A stretch of DNA of 59,035 bases from Chlorobiota bacterium (GTDB lineage: Bacteria > Bacteroidota > Bacteroidia > Bacteroidales > Prolixibacteraceae). This document shows, in pieces, positions 52,098-59,035 of this stretch. The stretch is from assembly GCA_013152355.1 (NCBI GenBank), contig JAADGO010000079.1, positions 1 to 59,035 on the forward strand, written 5' to 3'. The first letter of the stretch is position 1. Each line of letters begins with the position of its first letter. The notes beneath the pieces are model-generated. The model saw only the letters and a list, made by a program, of their open reading frames with translations, did no database searches and had not been told where the DNA came from. The translations under genes were made by a program, and so were the position numbers.

Positions 52098-53078
52098 GTG
52101 AACACACAAAAATTCTCAGAAGATATCCTTGTTATCAAAGATATCGAATCGGAAGTGGATTCGGTAACAAGGAAATTAAAGGAAGGCATATTAACAGTCC
52201 TTAGGCGGAAGGGTGCCATTATTGGCATTAGCGGTGGGATTGATTCATCGGTAACACTGGCTTTAGCTGTAAAGGCTTTAGGCCCCGAACGGGTAATAGG
52301 GGTAATGCTCCCCGAAAAGGACTCAAGTGAAGACAGCAAGCTATTGGCCCAGGGCCTGGCACAAAAATTTGGAGTTCAAACAATTGAAGAAGATATAACA
52401 AAAGCCCTTGACGGGTTTGGGTGTTACAATCGCAGAGACGAGGCTGTAGCCGCGGTATTCCCCGAGTACAACCCTGCCGAATACAAAATGAAGATAGGTG
52501 TTAGCCAAAAGGGGATCAACCAAAACCTCCCTCCTCTTTTTTCACTGACGATTGTCGATAAAAATGGGCAGGGGAAAAGTAAACTACTCCCATTAAAGGA
52601 ATACCTGCAGATTGTAGCAGCATCTAACTTTAAGCAGCGATGCCGTATGTCGATGCTTTATTACCATGCCGAACGGATGCATTATGCAGTAGTTGGCACA
52701 CCAAACAAGCACGAAGTAGAACAAGGTTTTTTTGTGAAGCATGGGGATGGCGGTGCCGATATAATGCCTATTGCCCATTTATATAAATCCCAGGTTTACC
52801 AGATGGCTGATTACCTGGGGATCCCCGGGGAGATTATCGAACGTACCCCAACCACCGATACGTATTCAGCCGAGCAAACCCAGGAAGAGTTTTTCTTCCA
52901 GTTGCCCTTCAACGAAATGGATATGATCTGGTATGGGTATGAGAATGGTTATGAACCTGCTGAAATAGCCAGGGTATTGAAGATGGGAGAGGATGAAATT
53001 AAATCGGCCTATAAGAATTTCAACCGTAAACAGAAAACAACTGAATACCTTAGAATGCCACCTATTAAAGATTTTTAA
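52098..53078 (+). CDS. NadE-like PP-loop ATP pyrophosphatase (NAD+ synthetase family, single domain, with an internal insertion)
   Basis: 326-aa ORF with a GTG start. It carries the PP-loop GISGGIDSS and a NadE-like C-terminal half (NFKQRCRMSMLYYHAE...VVGTPNKHEVEQGFFVKHGDGGADIMPI..LYKSQVY). An extra segment of about 45 aa (EYKMKIG...LPLKEY) is present. Confidence 0.7.
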   Translation: MNTQKFSEDILVIKDIESEVDSVTRKLKEGILTVLRRKGAIIGISGGIDSSVTLALAVKALGPERVIGVMLPEKDSSEDSKLLAQGLAQKFGVQTIEEDITKALDGFGCYNRRDEAVAAVFPEYNPAEYKMKIGVSQKGINQNLPPLFSLTIVDKNGQGKSKLLPLKEYLQIVAASNFKQRCRMSMLYYHAERMHYAVVGTPNKHEVEQGFFVKHGDGGADIMPIAHLYKSQVYQMADYLGIPGEIIERTPTTDTYSAEQTQEEFFFQLPFNEMDMIWYGYENGYEPAEIARVLKMGEDEIKSAYKNFNRKQKTTEYLRMPPIKDF

Positions 53079-53089
53079 ATAGTATCCAG

Positions 53090-54655
53090 ATGATTCAAAT
53101 ACCTCAACGTTTACTGGGAGAAGCATTGTTGCGTTCGGCCGGGAAGAACCCGTCAAAGGCAGCAATAATCTTTAAAGGCAAGGAATATTCATATTCCCTA
53201 CTGAAAGAAAGCTCTGAGAAACTTGCCTGCCATATTGCCGCTGCCGGGATAAAAAAGGGAGACCGGGTAGCTATTTATATGAATAATTCATGGCAATGCA
53301 TTGTTTCAATATACGGGGCTATTTTAGCAGGTGCTGTTTTCCTTGTTATCAACCCGCAAACAAAAGCAAAAAAATTACAATATATTTTAAATGATAGCGG
53401 TGCAAAGGTGCTGATCTCAGAAATCCTGCTTAAACAGGAGTTCTCTAATGCTTTAGAAGGCACAGAATCTGTCAGGGAAGTCATCATTACCGGTGTAACA
53501 GGTGAAATCATTCAAAAGCCGGATTACAATTTGTCGGCTTTTGAGACTATTATCCAGGGCAATTGCACCAATGCGGGCCTTCCGGATATCATTCCCAACG
53601 ACCTTGCTGCTTTGATATATACTTCGGGCAGCACGGGGTTTCCAAAAGGGGTTATGATGACACACCAATCAATGGTTTTTATTTCGTGGAGCCTTATACA
53701 GTATTTAAGGCTGACAGAAGATGAGCGTATAATGTTGCTTTTGCCACTGGCATTTGATTACGGGCTATACCAGCTATTTATGGCAATAACTGTGGGAGGT
53801 ACGCTAATTGTTGAGCAATCATTCACATTCCCTGCCACCATATACAATCATATTGAGCAATTCAAGCCAACCGTATTTCCGGCAGTACCTACTATTTACG
53901 CAATGATGATAGCCTCCAACAAAGAAACAGGGATTTCATTCGACAGCATAAAAAAAATAACAAATACTGCCGCAGCATTGCCGGCAGAGGTTATTCCCGA
54001 CTTAAAAAAATTATTCCCCAATGCACTGATTTTTAAGATGTATGGATTAACAGAATGCAAAAGGGTTTGCTACCTCGAACCTGAACTGATTGATTTAAAA
54101 CCGGCATCTGTTGGCAAAGCAATCCCCGGCACCGAGGTATTCCTCTTATCACCCGAAGGAGGGCCGGTGCCAACAGGCAAACCGGGGATTTTACATATCC
54201 GTGGGCCTCACGTTATGGCGGGGTATTGGAATAACCATAAAGCAACAGCGGAGATGCTTAAACCGGGCAAGATCCCCGGCGAAAGAATACTATGTTCCAA
54301 CGACTGGTTTAAAATGGACGAAGAGGGATTCCTGTATTTCCAGGGGAGGAATGATGATATTATTAAAACCAGGGGGGAGAAAGTAAGCCCGATTGAGATT
54401 GAAAATATTATTTATAAAGTAAAAGGCATAAAAGAGGTGGCAGTAATTGGTGTCAGGGATAATATCCTGGGGGAATCAATAGCGGCTTTTGTTACTACCC
54501 ATGATTATGCGCAACCGGACGAGAAAGTAATTCAAAAACAATGTATAACCCACCTGGAACTGTTTATGGTTCCTCAAAAAATTATTTTTTTAAAAGAAAT
54601 GCCCAAAAGCACAAACGGGAAAATTGATAAGAAAGAATTGTATAACTACCTCTAA
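53090..54655 (+). CDS. Adenylate-forming enzyme (AMP-binding superfamily; acyl/aminoacyl-carrier ligase, DltA-like role)
   Basis: 521-aa ORF with core motifs LIYTSGSTGFPKGV, YGLTE, WFKMDEEGFLYFQGRNDDIIKTRGEKVSPIEIE and STNGKIDKKEL. Confidence 0.85.
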   Translation: MIQIPQRLLGEALLRSAGKNPSKAAIIFKGKEYSYSLLKESSEKLACHIAAAGIKKGDRVAIYMNNSWQCIVSIYGAILAGAVFLVINPQTKAKKLQYILNDSGAKVLISEILLKQEFSNALEGTESVREVIITGVTGEIIQKPDYNLSAFETIIQGNCTNAGLPDIIPNDLAALIYTSGSTGFPKGVMMTHQSMVFISWSLIQYLRLTEDERIMLLLPLAFDYGLYQLFMAITVGGTLIVEQSFTFPATIYNHIEQFKPTVFPAVPTIYAMMIASNKETGISFDSIKKITNTAAALPAEVIPDLKKLFPNALIFKMYGLTECKRVCYLEPELIDLKPASVGKAIPGTEVFLLSPEGGPVPTGKPGILHIRGPHVMAGYWNNHKATAEMLKPGKIPGERILCSNDWFKMDEEGFLYFQGRNDDIIKTRGEKVSPIEIENIIYKVKGIKEVAVIGVRDNILGESIAAFVTTHDYAQPDEKVIQKQCITHLELFMVPQKIIFLKEMPKSTNGKIDKKELYNYL

Positions 54656-54659
54656 AACT

Positions 54660-55559
54660 ATGTTTAAAGAAGAAATTTTCAACAAAATAAAAGGTGGCCT
54701 GGCAACAAAACTCCAGCTTCCTGAAGATAAACCGGAAGAAACCATAGACTCTAATTTAAAAGCACTTTGGTTTACTGCTGCCGGGCAACCCAAGTCGGCC
54801 GAAAAAGCTGCCGGATTGCCACTCCCTGACATAACAGAACAGCAGATAAAAGTATTTCACCAACTAGTTGAAAAAAGGCTAAATAATACACCGCTTGCCT
54901 ACATTACAGGGCGGCAATGTTTTATGGATATTGAATTATTAGCTGACAACAGGGCATTAATCCCCAGGAAAGAAACCGAAATATTAGGCAGGAAAGCTGT
55001 AGACGTATGCACCCGGGCAGCCCTGTTAAAACAAGAAGTCAAGGTTATTGATGTCTGCTGTGGAGCCGGGAACCTGGCATTAGCCCTGGCGCATTATACC
55101 CCGGCTACTATTGTTAATGCAAGCGACCTGTCACAAGAAGCAGTTGACCTTACACAGGAGAATATTGCTAAATTAAACTTCGGGCACCGTGTACAGGTTA
55201 CACAGGGCGATTTATTCTCGGCTTTTGAAACAGACGGGTTTTATGAGAAAACAGATTTGATTGTTTGCAACCCTCCATATATTTCAAGTGCGAAAGTTGG
55301 GAAGATACATGCCGAGATTTCAGCAAACGAGCCCACTTTAGCTTTTGATGGGGGTATGTTAGGGATAAACCTAATTCAAAACCTGATCAGGGAAGCTTCG
55401 AAATTTTTAACAAAAACAGGATGGTTATTGTTTGAGGTTGGAGTCGGGCAAGGTAGGTTTATTATGAATATATGCGAAAACATGCAGGAATACGATAAAA
55501 TTGAATCAGTATCCGATAATTTAGGCAATATCAGGGTGATATGCGCAAGGAAGAAATAA
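54660..55559 (+). CDS. HemK/PrmC-like N5-glutamine (amide-N) methyltransferase homolog with an NPPY motif
   Basis: PLAYITGRQCFMDIELLADNRALIPRKETE, SAM motif VIDVCCGAGNLAL, and catalytic VCNPPYISS. The ATG at 54660 lies 4 nt after the ligase stop, whereas the track's TTG start at 54624 would overlap the ligase. Confidence 0.75.
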   Translation: MFKEEIFNKIKGGLATKLQLPEDKPEETIDSNLKALWFTAAGQPKSAEKAAGLPLPDITEQQIKVFHQLVEKRLNNTPLAYITGRQCFMDIELLADNRALIPRKETEILGRKAVDVCTRAALLKQEVKVIDVCCGAGNLALALAHYTPATIVNASDLSQEAVDLTQENIAKLNFGHRVQVTQGDLFSAFETDGFYEKTDLIVCNPPYISSAKVGKIHAEISANEPTLAFDGGMLGINLIQNLIREASKFLTKTGWLLFEVGVGQGRFIMNICENMQEYDKIESVSDNLGNIRVICARKK

Positions 55560-55626: not shown

Positions 55627-57069
55627 ATGTTGCCTTATTTATTATATTACCTTATTTTTTTAACAGTTGTATCCCTGCTCTATTACTCTGTAAATAAAAA
55701 GTGCAGGCATTATGTGCTATTTGCGGCAAGCCTGCTGTTTATCGCCGGCTTTTCATTGCCGGTAGCGTTATTTTCCTTAGCACTTACAACGTTAAACTAT
55801 TTCCTGGGGCTTCTGCTTGACAGGTTTAAAGATAGGCCAGCCCTTAAAAGCAAAGTATTCTGGCTGGGCATTGTAGCCGATGTGGGGATTCTTGCATTCT
55901 TCAAGTATATCAATATATTCTTTGAAAATATTAATGCGCCCATTTCGTTAACGATTTTTGACGTTAAAATGCCATATTTAACGTTGCTCATACCTTTAGG
56001 GATTTCCTATTATACATTCCAGGCTCTTGGGTATTTGATACTGATAAACAGGGGAAGTGAACAAGCTGAAAGAAATTATGCACGGTTTGCAACCTTCCTG
56101 TTATTTTTCCCAAAATTCCTTTCGGGGCCTGTAGAGCGTTCGGGGCATTTCTTCCCACAAATAAAAAACCCTGGTGTTTTCGACCGGGACAAAGCCGCCA
56201 GTGGTTTAAGGTTGTTATTGTGGGGGGCATTCAAGAAAATCGTTATTGCCAATAATCTTTATGGGCCTGTCTCAAATGTTTATAATGATATTTATAGTTA
56301 TACCGGGGCCTCGCTGATTATTGTTTTATTTATCCAGGTCATATACATCTATTTTGATTTTTCAGGGTACACAGATATGGCTTTAGGCTCTGCAAAAATC
56401 TTTGGGATTGACCTGGTTGATAATTTCAAACGCCCATTCCTGGCTAAAAATGTATCAGAATTCTGGAAACGGTGGCACATCTCATTATCTTCGTGGTGCA
56501 ATGATTTTATTTTTATCCCTTTCATTGTCAAATTCAGGAGGTGGGGGAATACGGCTGCTGTTGCAGGAATATTTTTAACCTTTTTCATTATTGGGGTCTG
56601 GCATGGTGCAAACCTGACATTTGTTGTGCTGGGGATACTTCAGGGCATAGCTGTTGTATATGAGTTTTATACAAAAAAGATAAGGTTTAATATAGCTGCC
56701 AGGCTTCCCAAATATATGGTAAATACATTAGGCCGTTTTTTTGTTTTCTTATTCATGGCCGTATCTATGGTGTTCTTTTACGCCAATTCTTTGACTGAAG
56801 CCTTATACTTCATATCCCATTTATTTTCAGATATAAAATCAGGGATAAATGTGCATGGGCTTATTGCTAACAGTCCGGCATTCCTCCTGGCCCTTGCATG
56901 TTTTATTTTGTTATTTATTGTGGAAATGCTCAATGAAAAAGGAAAAGATATAATGTCATTTTATATGAAACAACCACTGTGGGTCCGTTGGGCGGGTTAC
57001 TTTATTGCTATTGCCCTTATCTATTTTTCGGGCACCGGAATCGAATCATTCTATTATATGAGGTTTTAA
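55627..57069 (+). CDS. MBOAT family membrane O-acyltransferase (DltB/AlgI-like)
   Basis: 480-aa polytopic ORF. FWKRWHISLSSW and the invariant-His region IIGVWHGAN are typical of MBOAT. Confidence 0.85.
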   Translation: MLPYLLYYLIFLTVVSLLYYSVNKKCRHYVLFAASLLFIAGFSLPVALFSLALTTLNYFLGLLLDRFKDRPALKSKVFWLGIVADVGILAFFKYINIFFENINAPISLTIFDVKMPYLTLLIPLGISYYTFQALGYLILINRGSEQAERNYARFATFLLFFPKFLSGPVERSGHFFPQIKNPGVFDRDKAASGLRLLLWGAFKKIVIANNLYGPVSNVYNDIYSYTGASLIIVLFIQVIYIYFDFSGYTDMALGSAKIFGIDLVDNFKRPFLAKNVSEFWKRWHISLSSWCNDFIFIPFIVKFRRWGNTAAVAGIFLTFFIIGVWHGANLTFVVLGILQGIAVVYEFYTKKIRFNIAARLPKYMVNTLGRFFVFLFMAVSMVFFYANSLTEALYFISHLFSDIKSGINVHGLIANSPAFLLALACFILLFIVEMLNEKGKDIMSFYMKQPLWVRWAGYFIAIALIYFSGTGIESFYYMRF

Positions 57070-57077: not shown

Positions 57078-57104
57078 TATAGTAACACTATAAAATTAAC
57101 AGCT

Positions 57105-57944
57105 ATGAATATTTTAAAAACAAGTTTTTTTATTTCTATTGCAATTATAACTGCAATAATAATATTTCAATGTTCAAAAAACAATGCCTCCTCTACCGGC
57201 AAAGAGTGCAAGATCCTTTTCTTACACCACAGTACCGGTGCAATAATTTACAAAGGGGGAAGCAGTGGTATCCTTGCTCAACAGGAAGTCCCCAAATGGT
57301 TTAATAATTACAACAAAAAGAATGGTACTTCATACAAAATAACTGAACAGGAATTCCCCAAAAGCCAACCGTACGGATGGAACAACTACCCTTATGATTA
57401 TTATAATATTTGGGTGAAACATGCTGGAAACCAGCCATATCTTGAAGAACCGACACTGGAAATGCTGACGAAGGAGTATAATGTCATAATCTTTAAACAT
57501 TGTTTCCCGGGTAGTAATATACTGGAAGATTTGGATAATGCCGATATTGATTCGCCGGAGAAACGGCTGGGAAACTACAAACTTCAATACCAGGCTTTAA
57601 AACAGAAATTAACCCAATTCCCGGAGGTAAAGTTTATTGTATGGACCGGTGCGGCACTGATCGAAGCACAAACAACCCCGGAAAATGCTGCCCGGGCAAG
57701 AGAATTTTCCGAATGGGTTAAGAATGAGTGGGATACAGACGGCGATAATATTTACGTATGGGACTTCCGCGAACTTGAAACAGAAGGCGGGCTATACCTC
57801 AAGAAGGAATATGCCAGCTCGTCAGGCGATTCGCACCCGGGGAAGGATTTTGCAAAAACTGTAGCCCCGCTACTTTGCCAAAGGATTGTAGATGTGATTG
57901 AGAATAATGGGGCGAAAACAACTCTGACAGGCAAGCCACTTTAA
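57105..57944 (+). CDS. Exported/lipoprotein partner of the MBOAT (occupies the DltD/AlgJ/AlgX position; fold unassigned)
   Basis: The start is set at MNILKTSFFISIAIITAIIIFQCSKNN (signal plus lipobox-like Cys). The track's 56979 start would overlap the MBOAT by 91 nt. LFLHHSTG and SSGDSHPG are loosely reminiscent of SGNH blocks I and V but do not match exactly. Confidence 0.6.
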   Translation: MNILKTSFFISIAIITAIIIFQCSKNNASSTGKECKILFLHHSTGAIIYKGGSSGILAQQEVPKWFNNYNKKNGTSYKITEQEFPKSQPYGWNNYPYDYYNIWVKHAGNQPYLEEPTLEMLTKEYNVIIFKHCFPGSNILEDLDNADIDSPEKRLGNYKLQYQALKQKLTQFPEVKFIVWTGAALIEAQTTPENAARAREFSEWVKNEWDTDGDNIYVWDFRELETEGGLYLKKEYASSSGDSHPGKDFAKTVAPLLCQRIVDVIENNGAKTTLTGKPL

Positions 57945-58041: not shown

Positions 58042-58293
58042 ATGAAAAATTCAACTGATATTAAAGAAGAAGTAAGGCAATTCATTATCGAAACAACATT
58101 TGCCCCTGCAGAACAGGTAAAAAACGACACATTAATTTTCGAACAGGGTATATTCGACTCTATGGGTTTTATTTCATTAATTGTTTTTATTGAAAACACT
58201 TTTAATTTAAACCCAAAAGATTCGGAACTGTTAGAAGAGAACTTTAAGTCGGTCAATGCAATTGCCAATTTTATCGAACGTAAACTTAATTAA
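58042..58293 (+). CDS. Acyl/aminoacyl carrier protein (DltC-like)
   Basis: 83-aa ORF. FEQGIFDSMGFISLIVFIENTF contains the phosphopantetheine-attachment DS motif in a context close to the D-alanyl carrier protein pattern (FE.G..DS.G...L...IE..F). Confidence 0.8.
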   Translation: MKNSTDIKEEVRQFIIETTFAPAEQVKNDTLIFEQGIFDSMGFISLIVFIENTFNLNPKDSELLEENFKSVNAIANFIERKLN

Positions 58294-58304: not shown

Positions 58305-59035
58305 ATGTGCGGAATTGCCGGAATATATAATTACTCTTCGCAACAAAATAGTTCACCCGGACAGAATGTAAAGAGAATGCTTTCGGCAATCAGGCACCGG
58401 GGCCCGGATGAAAGCGGCATGTACCTGGGGAAGGGCGTGGGGCTTGGAAGCGTGCGGTTGAGCATCATCGACCTGGCATCGGGGCAGCAACCCATATCGG
58501 ATGATTCGGAGAATTACTGGATCGTTTATAATGGCGAAATATTTAATTACCGCGAGTTAAGGAGCAGCATTGAGAAAAAAGGCATCAGGCTTAAAACACA
58601 CAGCGACACCGAGGTGGTTGTGCAGATGTATGCTATTTATGGTGCTGGTTGCCTGAAGCATTTCAATGGGCAGTTTGCTTTTTGTATATGGGATAAGAGG
58701 AAACAGGAATTGTTCCTTGCACGCGACCGTGTAGGTATCAGGCCCCTGTTCTACTGGGCAAAGAATGGCTCTTTTGCCTTTTGCTCCGAAATAAAGGGGT
58801 TATTTACCCTTGGGCAGGTTAATAAAGCCATCCGCCCTGAAAGTTTAGCACAGGTTTTTACTTTCTGGTCGACACTTTCGCCCAATACCCCGTTTGAAGA
58901 TATTTATGAACTGCCGCCAGGGCACCAGATGGTTGTGAGTTCTTCAAAAATCCATATTGAGAAATACTGGAGTATGGATTTCCCGGACAAAGGGAATATT
59001 CGCCCCCGCAGTTTACCCGATGCTGTTGAAGAATT
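58305..59035 (+). CDS. Asparagine synthase (glutamine-hydrolysing) family amidotransferase, first ~243 codons (3' end beyond the window)
   Basis: Not in the ORF track because it is open to the window edge. Manual translation from the ATG at 58305 gives MCGIAGIYNYSS...RHRGPDESGMY...RLSIIDLASGQQPI...YNGEIFNYRELR...HSDTEVV...FAFCIWDK...LARDRVGIRPLFY, which has the Ntn Cys2 and the class-II GATase motifs. Confidence 0.85.
   Translation, partial: MCGIAGIYNYSSQQNSSPGQNVKRMLSAIRHRGPDESGMYLGKGVGLGSVRLSIIDLASGQQPISDDSENYWIVYNGEIFNYRELRSSIEKKGIRLKTHSDTEVVVQMYAIYGAGCLKHFNGQFAFCIWDKRKQELFLARDRVGIRPLFYWAKNGSFAFCSEIKGLFTLGQVNKAIRPESLAQVFTFWSTLSPNTPFEDIYELPPGHQMVVSSSKIHIEKYWSMDFPDKGNIRPRSLPDAVEE

Follow-up and report, generated by a model that had tools for sequence, protein, structure and literature searches.

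Contig JAADGO010000079.1 of a Chlorobiota bacterium supplied the 59,035 nucleotides analysed here (the window), a Wza/Wzc polysaccharide locus with amino-sugar genes in which a methyltransferase (MT) of the PrmC/HemK type lies between an adenylating ligase and an MBOAT acyltransferase. This MT is a paralogue and not the housekeeping PrmC of its genome. On balance, we favour the view that it is a PrmC-derived N-methyltransferase that no longer serves release factors (RFs) and would instead methylate a nitrogen, likeliest that of a newly made carboxamide, of an aspartate-derived unit that is tethered to a carrier protein and destined for polysaccharide.

HemK/PrmC enzymes normally methylate the side-chain amide of glutamine in RFs, and NCBI and JGI records label members of the subfamily to which the window MT belongs "release factor glutamine methyltransferase". 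The open reading frame (ORF) runs on the + strand from an ATG at 54660 to a TAA at 55557-55559 and encodes 299 amino acids (aa); an alternative in-frame TTG upstream, at 54624, would give 311 aa, and in the alignment all homologues begin at the position equivalent to the ATG. Every PrmC-type motif quoted in the original prediction was located in the translated 299-aa protein: PLAYITGRQCF (residues 78-88), ALIPRKETE (99-107), VIDVCCGAGNLAL (129-141) and VCNPPYISS (202-210). Its signature elements are DKPEE (residues 23-27), DVCCGAGN and CNPPY. In searches with hidden Markov models (HMMs), hemK_fam (TIGR00536) scored 194.4 bits against a cut-off of 115.5 (E 2.1e-57), which places the protein in the HemK family, and the PrmB model TIGR03533 stayed below its cut-off (150.2 versus 229.7 bits). 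The PrmC equivalog of NCBIfam, TIGR03534, was just exceeded (200.3 bits, cut-off 199.1, E 3.6e-59) by a match spanning model positions 24-252 of 253 only, and other subfamily members score 193-198 bits, under the cut-off. Pfam found an MTS/class I methyltransferase domain and matched PrmC_N at residues 58-84 only, the last third of that domain.

A profile search of the source genome (98% complete, 242 contigs) returned a second prmC, on contig C111, which scores 260.5 bits on TIGR03534 over model positions 3-252 and adjoins, divergently, a ribD-like ORF (riboflavin deaminase/reductase-type, named from sequence). The window MT, 29% identical to this canonical copy, is thus not the sole prmC homologue. 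Canonical PrmC, at 236-292 bits, is also present in four of the five other genomes with a close homologue of the window MT, and outscores it. Among relatives, one canonical prmC copy occurs in 29 of 30 genomes, the exception being 82% complete, and the second copy is sporadic (4 of 8 congeners, plus one more genome each from the family and from the order). In a maximum-likelihood tree of 105 HemK-family proteins rooted on PrmB, 79 close homologues and 7 copies of a sister paralogue form one clade (branch 1.04, SH-aLRT 98), and 17 canonical PrmCs from Bacteroidota, Ignavibacteriota and Gammaproteobacteria, with those of E. coli and Methylobacter among them, fall into a group of their own (SH-aLRT 94). 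For the subfamily, seen in Bacteroidota and Methylococcaceae and at one locus each labelled Balneolota and Ignavibacteriota, identity is 52-66% across phyla; for canonical PrmC it is 45-54% within the same genus or family. An orthologue of PrmC should group with bona fide PrmC and be near-universal at one copy per genome; the window MT sits in a separate clade and was found in 7 genomes (E <= 1e-50) when 401 were sampled evenly, without selection, across the order. The original prediction would have failed with a lone prmC homologue that clusters with bona fide PrmC in a context not conserved elsewhere. The genome and the tree speak otherwise on the first two points, and the survey of loci does so on the third.

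For that survey, 185,579 species genomes were scanned, one per species, which gave 393 matched stretches (~0.2% of species). The best 80 of the 393 were mostly from Bacteroidales, Chitinophagaceae, Prolixibacteraceae, Lentimicrobiaceae and Methylococcaceae, while Balneolaceae and Ignavibacteria contributed one genome each; together with the window they made up the 81 loci analysed. The loci include those of the cultured strains Hanamia caeni BO-59, Tangfeifania diversioriginum DSM 27063 and Geofilum rubicundum JCM 15548. Their ORFs were clustered, and the locus counts per cluster are lower bounds, many contigs being short. The MT cluster was found in 81/81 loci, the ligase in 77, an AsnB-like protein in 70, a NadE-like protein in 67 and a small carrier protein in 61. 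The MBOAT and a SnoaL-like protein of 139 aa were each found in 31 loci, and an SGNH-like protein cluster (c8) and homologues of a 280-aa exported protein of the window each in 19. Hexapeptide-repeat acyltransferases stand in at loci without the MBOAT. Since the ligase and its companions persist while the delivering transferase varies, the five-gene cassette is the invariant unit and the transferase is interchangeable. The core cassette, comprising the carrier protein, the AsnB-like and NadE-like enzymes, the ligase and the MT, is rare and horizontally spread, and at Methylococcaceae loci it was seen as a five-gene unit without Wza/Wzc. The suggested tie of the MT to the ligase and MBOAT genes therefore holds for the former, its constant partner, but not for the latter, which is variable.

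In 71 of the 74 loci whose upstream DNA is long enough to tell, the ligase lies directly upstream of the MT and co-directional with it. By estimate, <=30 nt separate the two genes in 45 of these 71 loci, ~276-570 nt in 21, a stretch that in Chitinophagaceae-type loci contains the SnoaL-like gene, and 1349 nt in one. In the window, as originally read, the MT starts 4 nt after the ligase stop (TAA at 54653-54655, then AACT, then ATG), an arrangement that makes translational coupling of the two genes plausible. In the unselected sample, the ligase orthologue (E <= 1e-90) was found in the same 7 of 401 genomes as the MT; one further genome of the order (58% complete) has a ligase that is cut by a contig end. 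The MT was thus present in 7/7 genomes of this sample whose ligase flank was readable, and in 0 of 400 additional genomes of a phylum-level sample. Among 31 relatives, the ligase was found in the paralogue-bearing genomes except one (G022). Taken together, the occurrence of the ligase-MT cassette across phyla and the co-occurrence of the ligase in unselected genomes show that the context is conserved elsewhere.

Natural fusions were sought among longer proteins and 1.84 billion representatives. Ligase and MT are joined in P0121 (4 members, JGI and ENA), P0122, P0125, P0136 and P0223, a carrier (T) domain is joined to the MT in P0176 (T-MT), and the MT ends a non-ribosomal peptide synthetase (NRPS) of the order T-C-A-T-MT in P0124 and P0169. 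Furthermore, P0123 is an MT-NadE-like fusion, and P0134, P0140 and P0170 carry a C-terminal GNAT-like domain behind the MT (weak Pfam support, 22.8 bits). Among the fusions found, none joins the MT to a sugar enzyme. By Rosetta-stone logic, these proteins indicate that the MT works together with adenylation/carrier machinery and a PP-loop enzyme, the family of the NadE-like protein. Reading of the fusion sequences showed that the N-terminal signature DKP[ED]ET...ALW is retained in P0121, P0123, P0124, P0134, P0140 and P0176; the sequence of P0170 starts beyond the DKP[ED]ET position. In the representative search, ~60 clusters at 50% identity match the subfamily profile from the first residues, whereas canonical PrmCs match it only from ~position 56, at ~200 bits or less.

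The AlphaFold (AF2) model of the MT (pLDDT 84.5) combines a helical N-domain with a beta-hairpin and a class I MTase domain, and a loop behind NPPY (207-231) has low confidence. Its best Foldseek matches are E. coli and T. maritima PrmC over the full length (TM 0.71-0.82), the top one being E. coli PrmC 2b3t_A (TM 0.75/0.81, 295 aligned columns); more distant matches include the carbamoyl N-methyltransferase Asc-Orf2, PsiM and KMT9. A profile search of PDB sequences also finds, weakly, the HemK-like apramycin N-methyltransferase 23LQ (E 6.5e-06). The catalytic apparatus of PrmC is present in the window MT, with NPPY, the Gln-stacking residue and the motifs for S-adenosylmethionine (SAM). Invariant in the subfamily and common to PrmC are N204-P-P-Y207, L100, I101-P-R and E105-T-E (IPRxETE), the D131xGxGxG SAM loop, D156, D184, E224-P225 and E259. 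Leu89 of E. coli PrmC, which stacks on SAM and the substrate Gln (PMC3152332), is Leu100 in the window MT.

Other invariant residues are specific to the subfamily: D23-K24-P25-E26-E27, partly inside an insertion missing from E. coli PrmC, and R73, R85-Q86, D96, R98, C133-C134, C203, D230-G-G and G261xGQG. C203 makes the catalytic motif CNPPY in 79/79 subfamily members versus SNPPY in 17/17 canonical PrmCs. With DKP[ED]E, CNPPY and an adjoining VinN-type ligase, the window MT belongs to a cassette-linked HemK subfamily. The earlier impression that the N-terminal ~60 aa differ from the usual PrmC N-domain is borne out in sequence, where the HMM match begins at residue 57, but not in the predicted fold, which is still helical and aligns with PrmC. 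Mean column conservation over residues 1-56 is 0.62 in the subfamily versus 0.37 in PrmC, whose N-domain supplies 13 of the 29 residues contacting RF1 (PMC9060474). An N-domain that is rewritten yet strongly constrained points to a different, conserved macromolecular partner.

Pfam and NCBIfam matches agreed with the original naming of the neighbours: the MT is preceded by an AMP-ligase and followed by an MBOAT, and the same gene run includes NadE-like and AsnB-like genes. Over its whole length the ligase matches NRPS adenylation (A) domains in the PDB (LgrA module 2, 285 bits; VinN, 233 bits), with fatty-acyl ligases lower. With the pocket region alone, VinN was the only PDB match (E 2e-19), and the alignment is interrupted by one gap of one residue, outside the pocket motifs. 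These read FDYGLY, TNTAAALP and MYGLTECKR in the window ligase and WDFGLY, TNSAAALP and MYGQTECKR in VinN; the patterns given as shared by the two are FD[YF]GLY, TN[TS]AAALP and MYGxTECKR. VinN takes 3-methylaspartate or aspartate as a beta-amino acid through D230, F231, S299 and K330-R331 on a shortened loop (PMC11253843). The corresponding residues are identical or conservatively replaced in the window ligase and conserved in at least 90% of cassette ligases. Judged by sequence, the ligase is of VinN type, with an Asp235-equivalent, a bulky residue 236, Ser/Thr 301 and Lys-Arg on a beta13-beta14 loop one residue shorter. A Stachelhaus code taken via E. coli EntF (DYYFTTM(K)RVK-like) matched no nameable code; aligning the ligase directly with VinN told more. 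The carrier protein is thus likely to end up with a beta-linked aspartyl thioester whose alpha-carboxylate is free. The cassette is without a decarboxylase, and its AsnB-type and NadE-like enzymes belong to families that both turn carboxylates into carboxamides by adenylation.

These results suggest the following scheme. The ligase would adenylate aspartate or a close analogue via the side-chain carboxyl and load it onto the phosphopantetheinyl carrier protein, leaving the alpha-carboxylate free, which the AsnB-like and/or the NadE-like ATP-dependent enzyme would amidate to a primary carboxamide. The MT would then dock on the carrier protein, and not on RF1/RF2, through its re-purposed N-terminal helical domain, and methylate the amide nitrogen with the retained glutamine-amide active site of PrmC. 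Finally, the MBOAT and its SGNH-like partner would move the acyl unit onto the Wza/Wzc-exported polysaccharide, a step that hexapeptide or GNAT acyltransferases may take over in other genomes. We infer here the identity of the loaded acid, amidation before methylation, the amide over the amine nitrogen, and docking of the N-domain on the carrier protein. Amide N-methylation of the tethered unit is preferred because a primary carboxamide beside an amino group resembles the Gln side chain that PrmC methylates.

The original prediction had offered N-methylation of a substituent or of a sugar in place of an RF. Its non-RF role is supported; between the two acceptors, a carrier-tethered substituent is favoured over a sugar because the MT is fused to A, T, NRPS, NadE and GNAT domains, and because the core cassette persists while the MBOAT or hexapeptide transferase changes. 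It is also conceivable, at somewhat less than even chances, that a PrmC-derived family as a whole switched its partner to phosphopantetheinyl carriers, methylating an isoasparagine-like unit, and that the N-methyl-carboxamide is an unrecognised decoration of exopolysaccharides and non-ribosomal peptides.

Several observations weigh against methylation of a carrier-bound carboxamide. The proposed scheme does not account for the need for two different amidating enzymes. Other PP-loop enzymes turn amides into amidines or nitriles, and one of the two might do so here. In the NRPS fusions, divergence of the A domains is too great for a reading of their substrates, and net charge and pI fail to separate the subfamily from PrmC. 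Exceptions to the gene association also exist: locus L036 is without AsnB or NadE within 10 kb, and an Ignavibacteria genome has an orphan MT, 54% identical, without the cassette within 10 kb and with no ligase orthologue found in the genome. A full-text literature search found no publication on the MT subfamily, on its link to the cassette of VinN-type ligase, carrier protein and amidotransferase, or on its NRPS-fused forms. Lastly, amine methylators with the HemK fold and NPPY exist (apramycin 23LQ, PsiM), and the free amino group of the tethered unit would be equally accessible.

This last point leads to the alternative that survives best, although we consider it unlikely: the cassette role and the substrate would be the same, but the methyl group would go to the amino group left free on the carrier-bound aspartyl unit, giving an N-methyl-amino-acyl decoration. 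It is consistent with the amine-methylating relatives, as PsiM and KMT9 are among the Foldseek matches and 23LQ acts on an amine, and with VinN-type loading, which leaves the amino group free. However, the residues with which PrmC handles the Gln amide, the stacking Leu included, are invariant in the subfamily, and the MT occurs fused to amide-forming enzymes and always in their company.

It is improbable, in our view, that the MT has kept protein glutamine as its substrate, whether by backing up PrmC on RF1/RF2 or by modifying a Gln of some cassette protein. The TIGR03534 cut-off passed by 1.2 bits, the PrmC fold and catalytic residues, and the database names would suit such a role, but canonical PrmC is found in the same genomes, the sequence of the RF1-binding N-domain has given way to another invariant signature, the MT is not linked to any release-factor gene, and a gene in ~0.2% of species accompanies the ligase in all cases of the genome samples but one (G022). 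Least probable of all is a methyl acceptor that belongs to a sugar (amino sugar, uronamide, or a nucleotide sugar that feeds into the polysaccharide), which the amino-sugar genes of the Wza/Wzc-type window and a second AsnB beside a UDP-sugar dehydrogenase at some related loci, suggestive of uronamide formation, would favour, but which is at odds with a constant partner that is the ligase and no sugar gene, with the Methylococcaceae five-gene cassettes lacking Wza/Wzc, and with fusions that involve A, T, NRPS, NadE and GNAT domains and no sugar enzyme.

The coordinates of the MT, its partner genes and the sister paralogues are compiled in the table.

Table. Cassette genes in the window, genes just beyond its end, and sister methyltransferases at related loci. 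Positions without a prefix are those of the window; L122:2317-4995 corresponds to positions 60316-62994 of the source contig (C36).
Feature	Position	Strand	Evidence or remark
NadE-like PP-loop ATP-pyrophosphatase, GISGGIDSS, extra paralogue	52098..53078	+	HMMs
VinN-type stand-alone adenylating enzyme (beta-amino-acid/aspartate A domain)	53090..54655	+	HMMs, PDB matches
PrmC/HemK-fold SAM-dependent N-methyltransferase, cassette-specific subfamily	54660..55559	+	299 aa; ORF, HMMs, alignment, tree, predicted fold
MBOAT (DltB-like) membrane acyltransferase	55627..57069	+	PF03062; variable accessory
Exported ~280-aa protein, predicted SGNH-like fold	57102..57944	+	AF2 model, Foldseek
Stand-alone carrier protein, 83 aa, PP-binding, FDSMG serine	58042..58293	+	HMMs
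AsnB-type glutamine amidotransferase, N-terminal part (MCGIAG, Cys2)	58305..59035	+	continues past window
Carrier-domain/thioesterase (T-TE) didomain protein	L122:2317-3369		downstream of AsnB
Sfp-type 4'-phosphopantetheinyl transferase	L122:3356-4138		downstream of AsnB
Alpha/beta-hydrolase	L122:4135-4995		downstream of AsnB
Sister MT	L019:3299-4192		
Sister MT	L032:11122-12015	-	
Sister MT	L042:7995-8807		
Sister MT	L046:11386-12258		
Sister MT	L051:3632-4504		
Sister MT	L054:11696-12586		
Sister MT	L064:12940-13833	-	

The NadE-like gene scored 439.6 bits against a cut-off of 313 on the NAD synthase subfamily model NF002048, but a 550-aa housekeeping NadE on contig C231 ruled it out as the only NAD synthase of the genome. 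The MBOAT reached 170 bits on TIGR04091, for which the DltB cut-off is 375. The exported protein had no Pfam match; its AF2 model (pLDDT 86.9) has as top Foldseek match PatB, which is the SGNH partner of an MBOAT, though the match is weak (TM 0.45/0.54), and the protein is the probable partner of the window MBOAT. The source contig runs on to 63767, and a run of ~30 N (C36 59037-59066, L122:1037-1066) lies inside the AsnB gene just past the window. The split of AsnB over two frames there goes back to the N run; it demonstrates no frameshift and is no evidence of a pseudogene. The Sfp-type phosphopantetheinyl transferase downstream of AsnB indicates that the cassette brings its own carrier-priming enzyme.

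At seven related loci a sister MT, 36-39% identical to the window MT, stands beside the cassette, usually with the SnoaL-like gene there too. In 7/7 copies the catalytic Asn of NPPY is lost (SAPPY) and the Gln-stacking Leu is replaced by Tyr; the DK.EE signature is retained. Judging from these substitutions, the sister MT may be an inactive partner or an enzyme of altered specificity. The SnoaL/NTF2-like protein of 139 aa itself lies between ligase and MT in 31 loci (for example L061:9489-9908); the window has none. A second AsnB paralogue, 40% identical, occurs downstream of the cassette AsnB at L006, L014, L019, L020, L029, L052, L053 and other loci, followed by a gene of the UDP-glucose/GDP-mannose dehydrogenase family, a flavin amine oxidase and a polysaccharide deacetylase, which suggests that a sugar module of its own, for making uronamides, adjoins the cassette. 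The orphan MT of the Ignavibacteria metagenome-assembled genome (MAG), at L063:10001-10900, has a GH18 glycosidase on one side and a MacB/TolC-type efflux operon on the other; the absence of a cassette ligase from this MAG holds for the query that was used. At L034, from a MAG labelled Alphaproteobacteria, the MT and the whole locus nest in Chitinophagaceae beside Hanamia caeni (branch length 0.05), and a search of this MAG found no canonical PrmC; its taxonomic label or binning is probably wrong.

The findings bear on annotation as well as on chemistry. Three cassette genes (MT, NadE-like and AsnB-like) pass or approach housekeeping models, which leads to systematic mislabelling; with the MT 1.2 bits over the PrmC cut-off and the NadE-like gene over that of NAD synthase, automatic annotation will misname both. 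If our reading is correct, an enzyme that modifies translation factors was recruited to secondary or surface-polymer chemistry, with its catalytic site retained and its substrate-docking domain rewritten. The scheme predicts an amidated, N-methylated acyl group derived from aspartate on exopolysaccharide, and a new in-cis tailoring domain in NRPS modules.

Compared with known systems, the window MT is closest to PrmC/HemK itself (E. coli 2B3T/1T43; T. maritima 1NV8), its best structural and HMM match, with which it shares the N-terminal helical bundle, beta-hairpin and class I MTase domain as well as NPPY, the Gln-stacking Leu, IPRxETE and the SAM motifs. It differs in forming a separate clade (26-29% identity), in having DKPEE, R73 and R85-Q86, and in reading CNPPY and DVCCGAGN where PrmC has SNPPY and DxGTGSG; furthermore, it is found in few genomes, as an accessory that goes together with a carrier-protein ligase and co-exists with canonical PrmC. 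The VinN/VinL (VinO) pathway for the beta-amino-acid starter of vicenistatin likewise combines a stand-alone A-domain enzyme, with the VinN pocket, and a stand-alone carrier protein. In contrast to that pathway, the cassette is without a pyridoxal phosphate-dependent decarboxylase, has two ATP-dependent amidating enzymes and an N-methyltransferase, and would deliver its product to polysaccharide, whereas the vicenistatin unit goes to a polyketide synthase.

In the Dlt system (DltA-D) and PatA/PatB, too, an adenylating enzyme, carrier protein, MBOAT and SGNH-like protein share an operon beside polymer export genes (PMC12148441). In the window, the ligase, carrier and MBOAT are all below the Dlt equivalog cut-offs, and the fourth protein is weakly SGNH-like. 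Dlt has no methyltransferase or amidotransferase, the window MBOAT falls under the DltB cut-off, and at many related loci hexapeptide or GNAT transferases replace the MBOAT.

SAM-dependent N-methylation of carboxamides or carbamoyl groups outside translation is known from AerE/PoyE, which act on Asn side chains of proteusin peptides, and from Asc-Orf2 (PDB 9L4Q), which is among the Foldseek and HMM matches of the window MT. AerE is structurally related to PrmC (PMC9060474) but has a different N-terminal subdomain and a ribosomal peptide substrate, Asc-Orf2 is without the PrmC N-domain, and neither is tied to a carrier-protein cassette. In the apramycin N-methyltransferase (23LQ), a member of the HemK family was recruited to methylate a small molecule on nitrogen, but this enzyme acts on a sugar amine and is not partnered by carrier proteins. 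HemK-like and PrmC-related enzymes acting on non-translational nitrogens are therefore already known; the full-text search met no description of the subfamily, its obligatory link to the cassette or its NRPS-fused forms.

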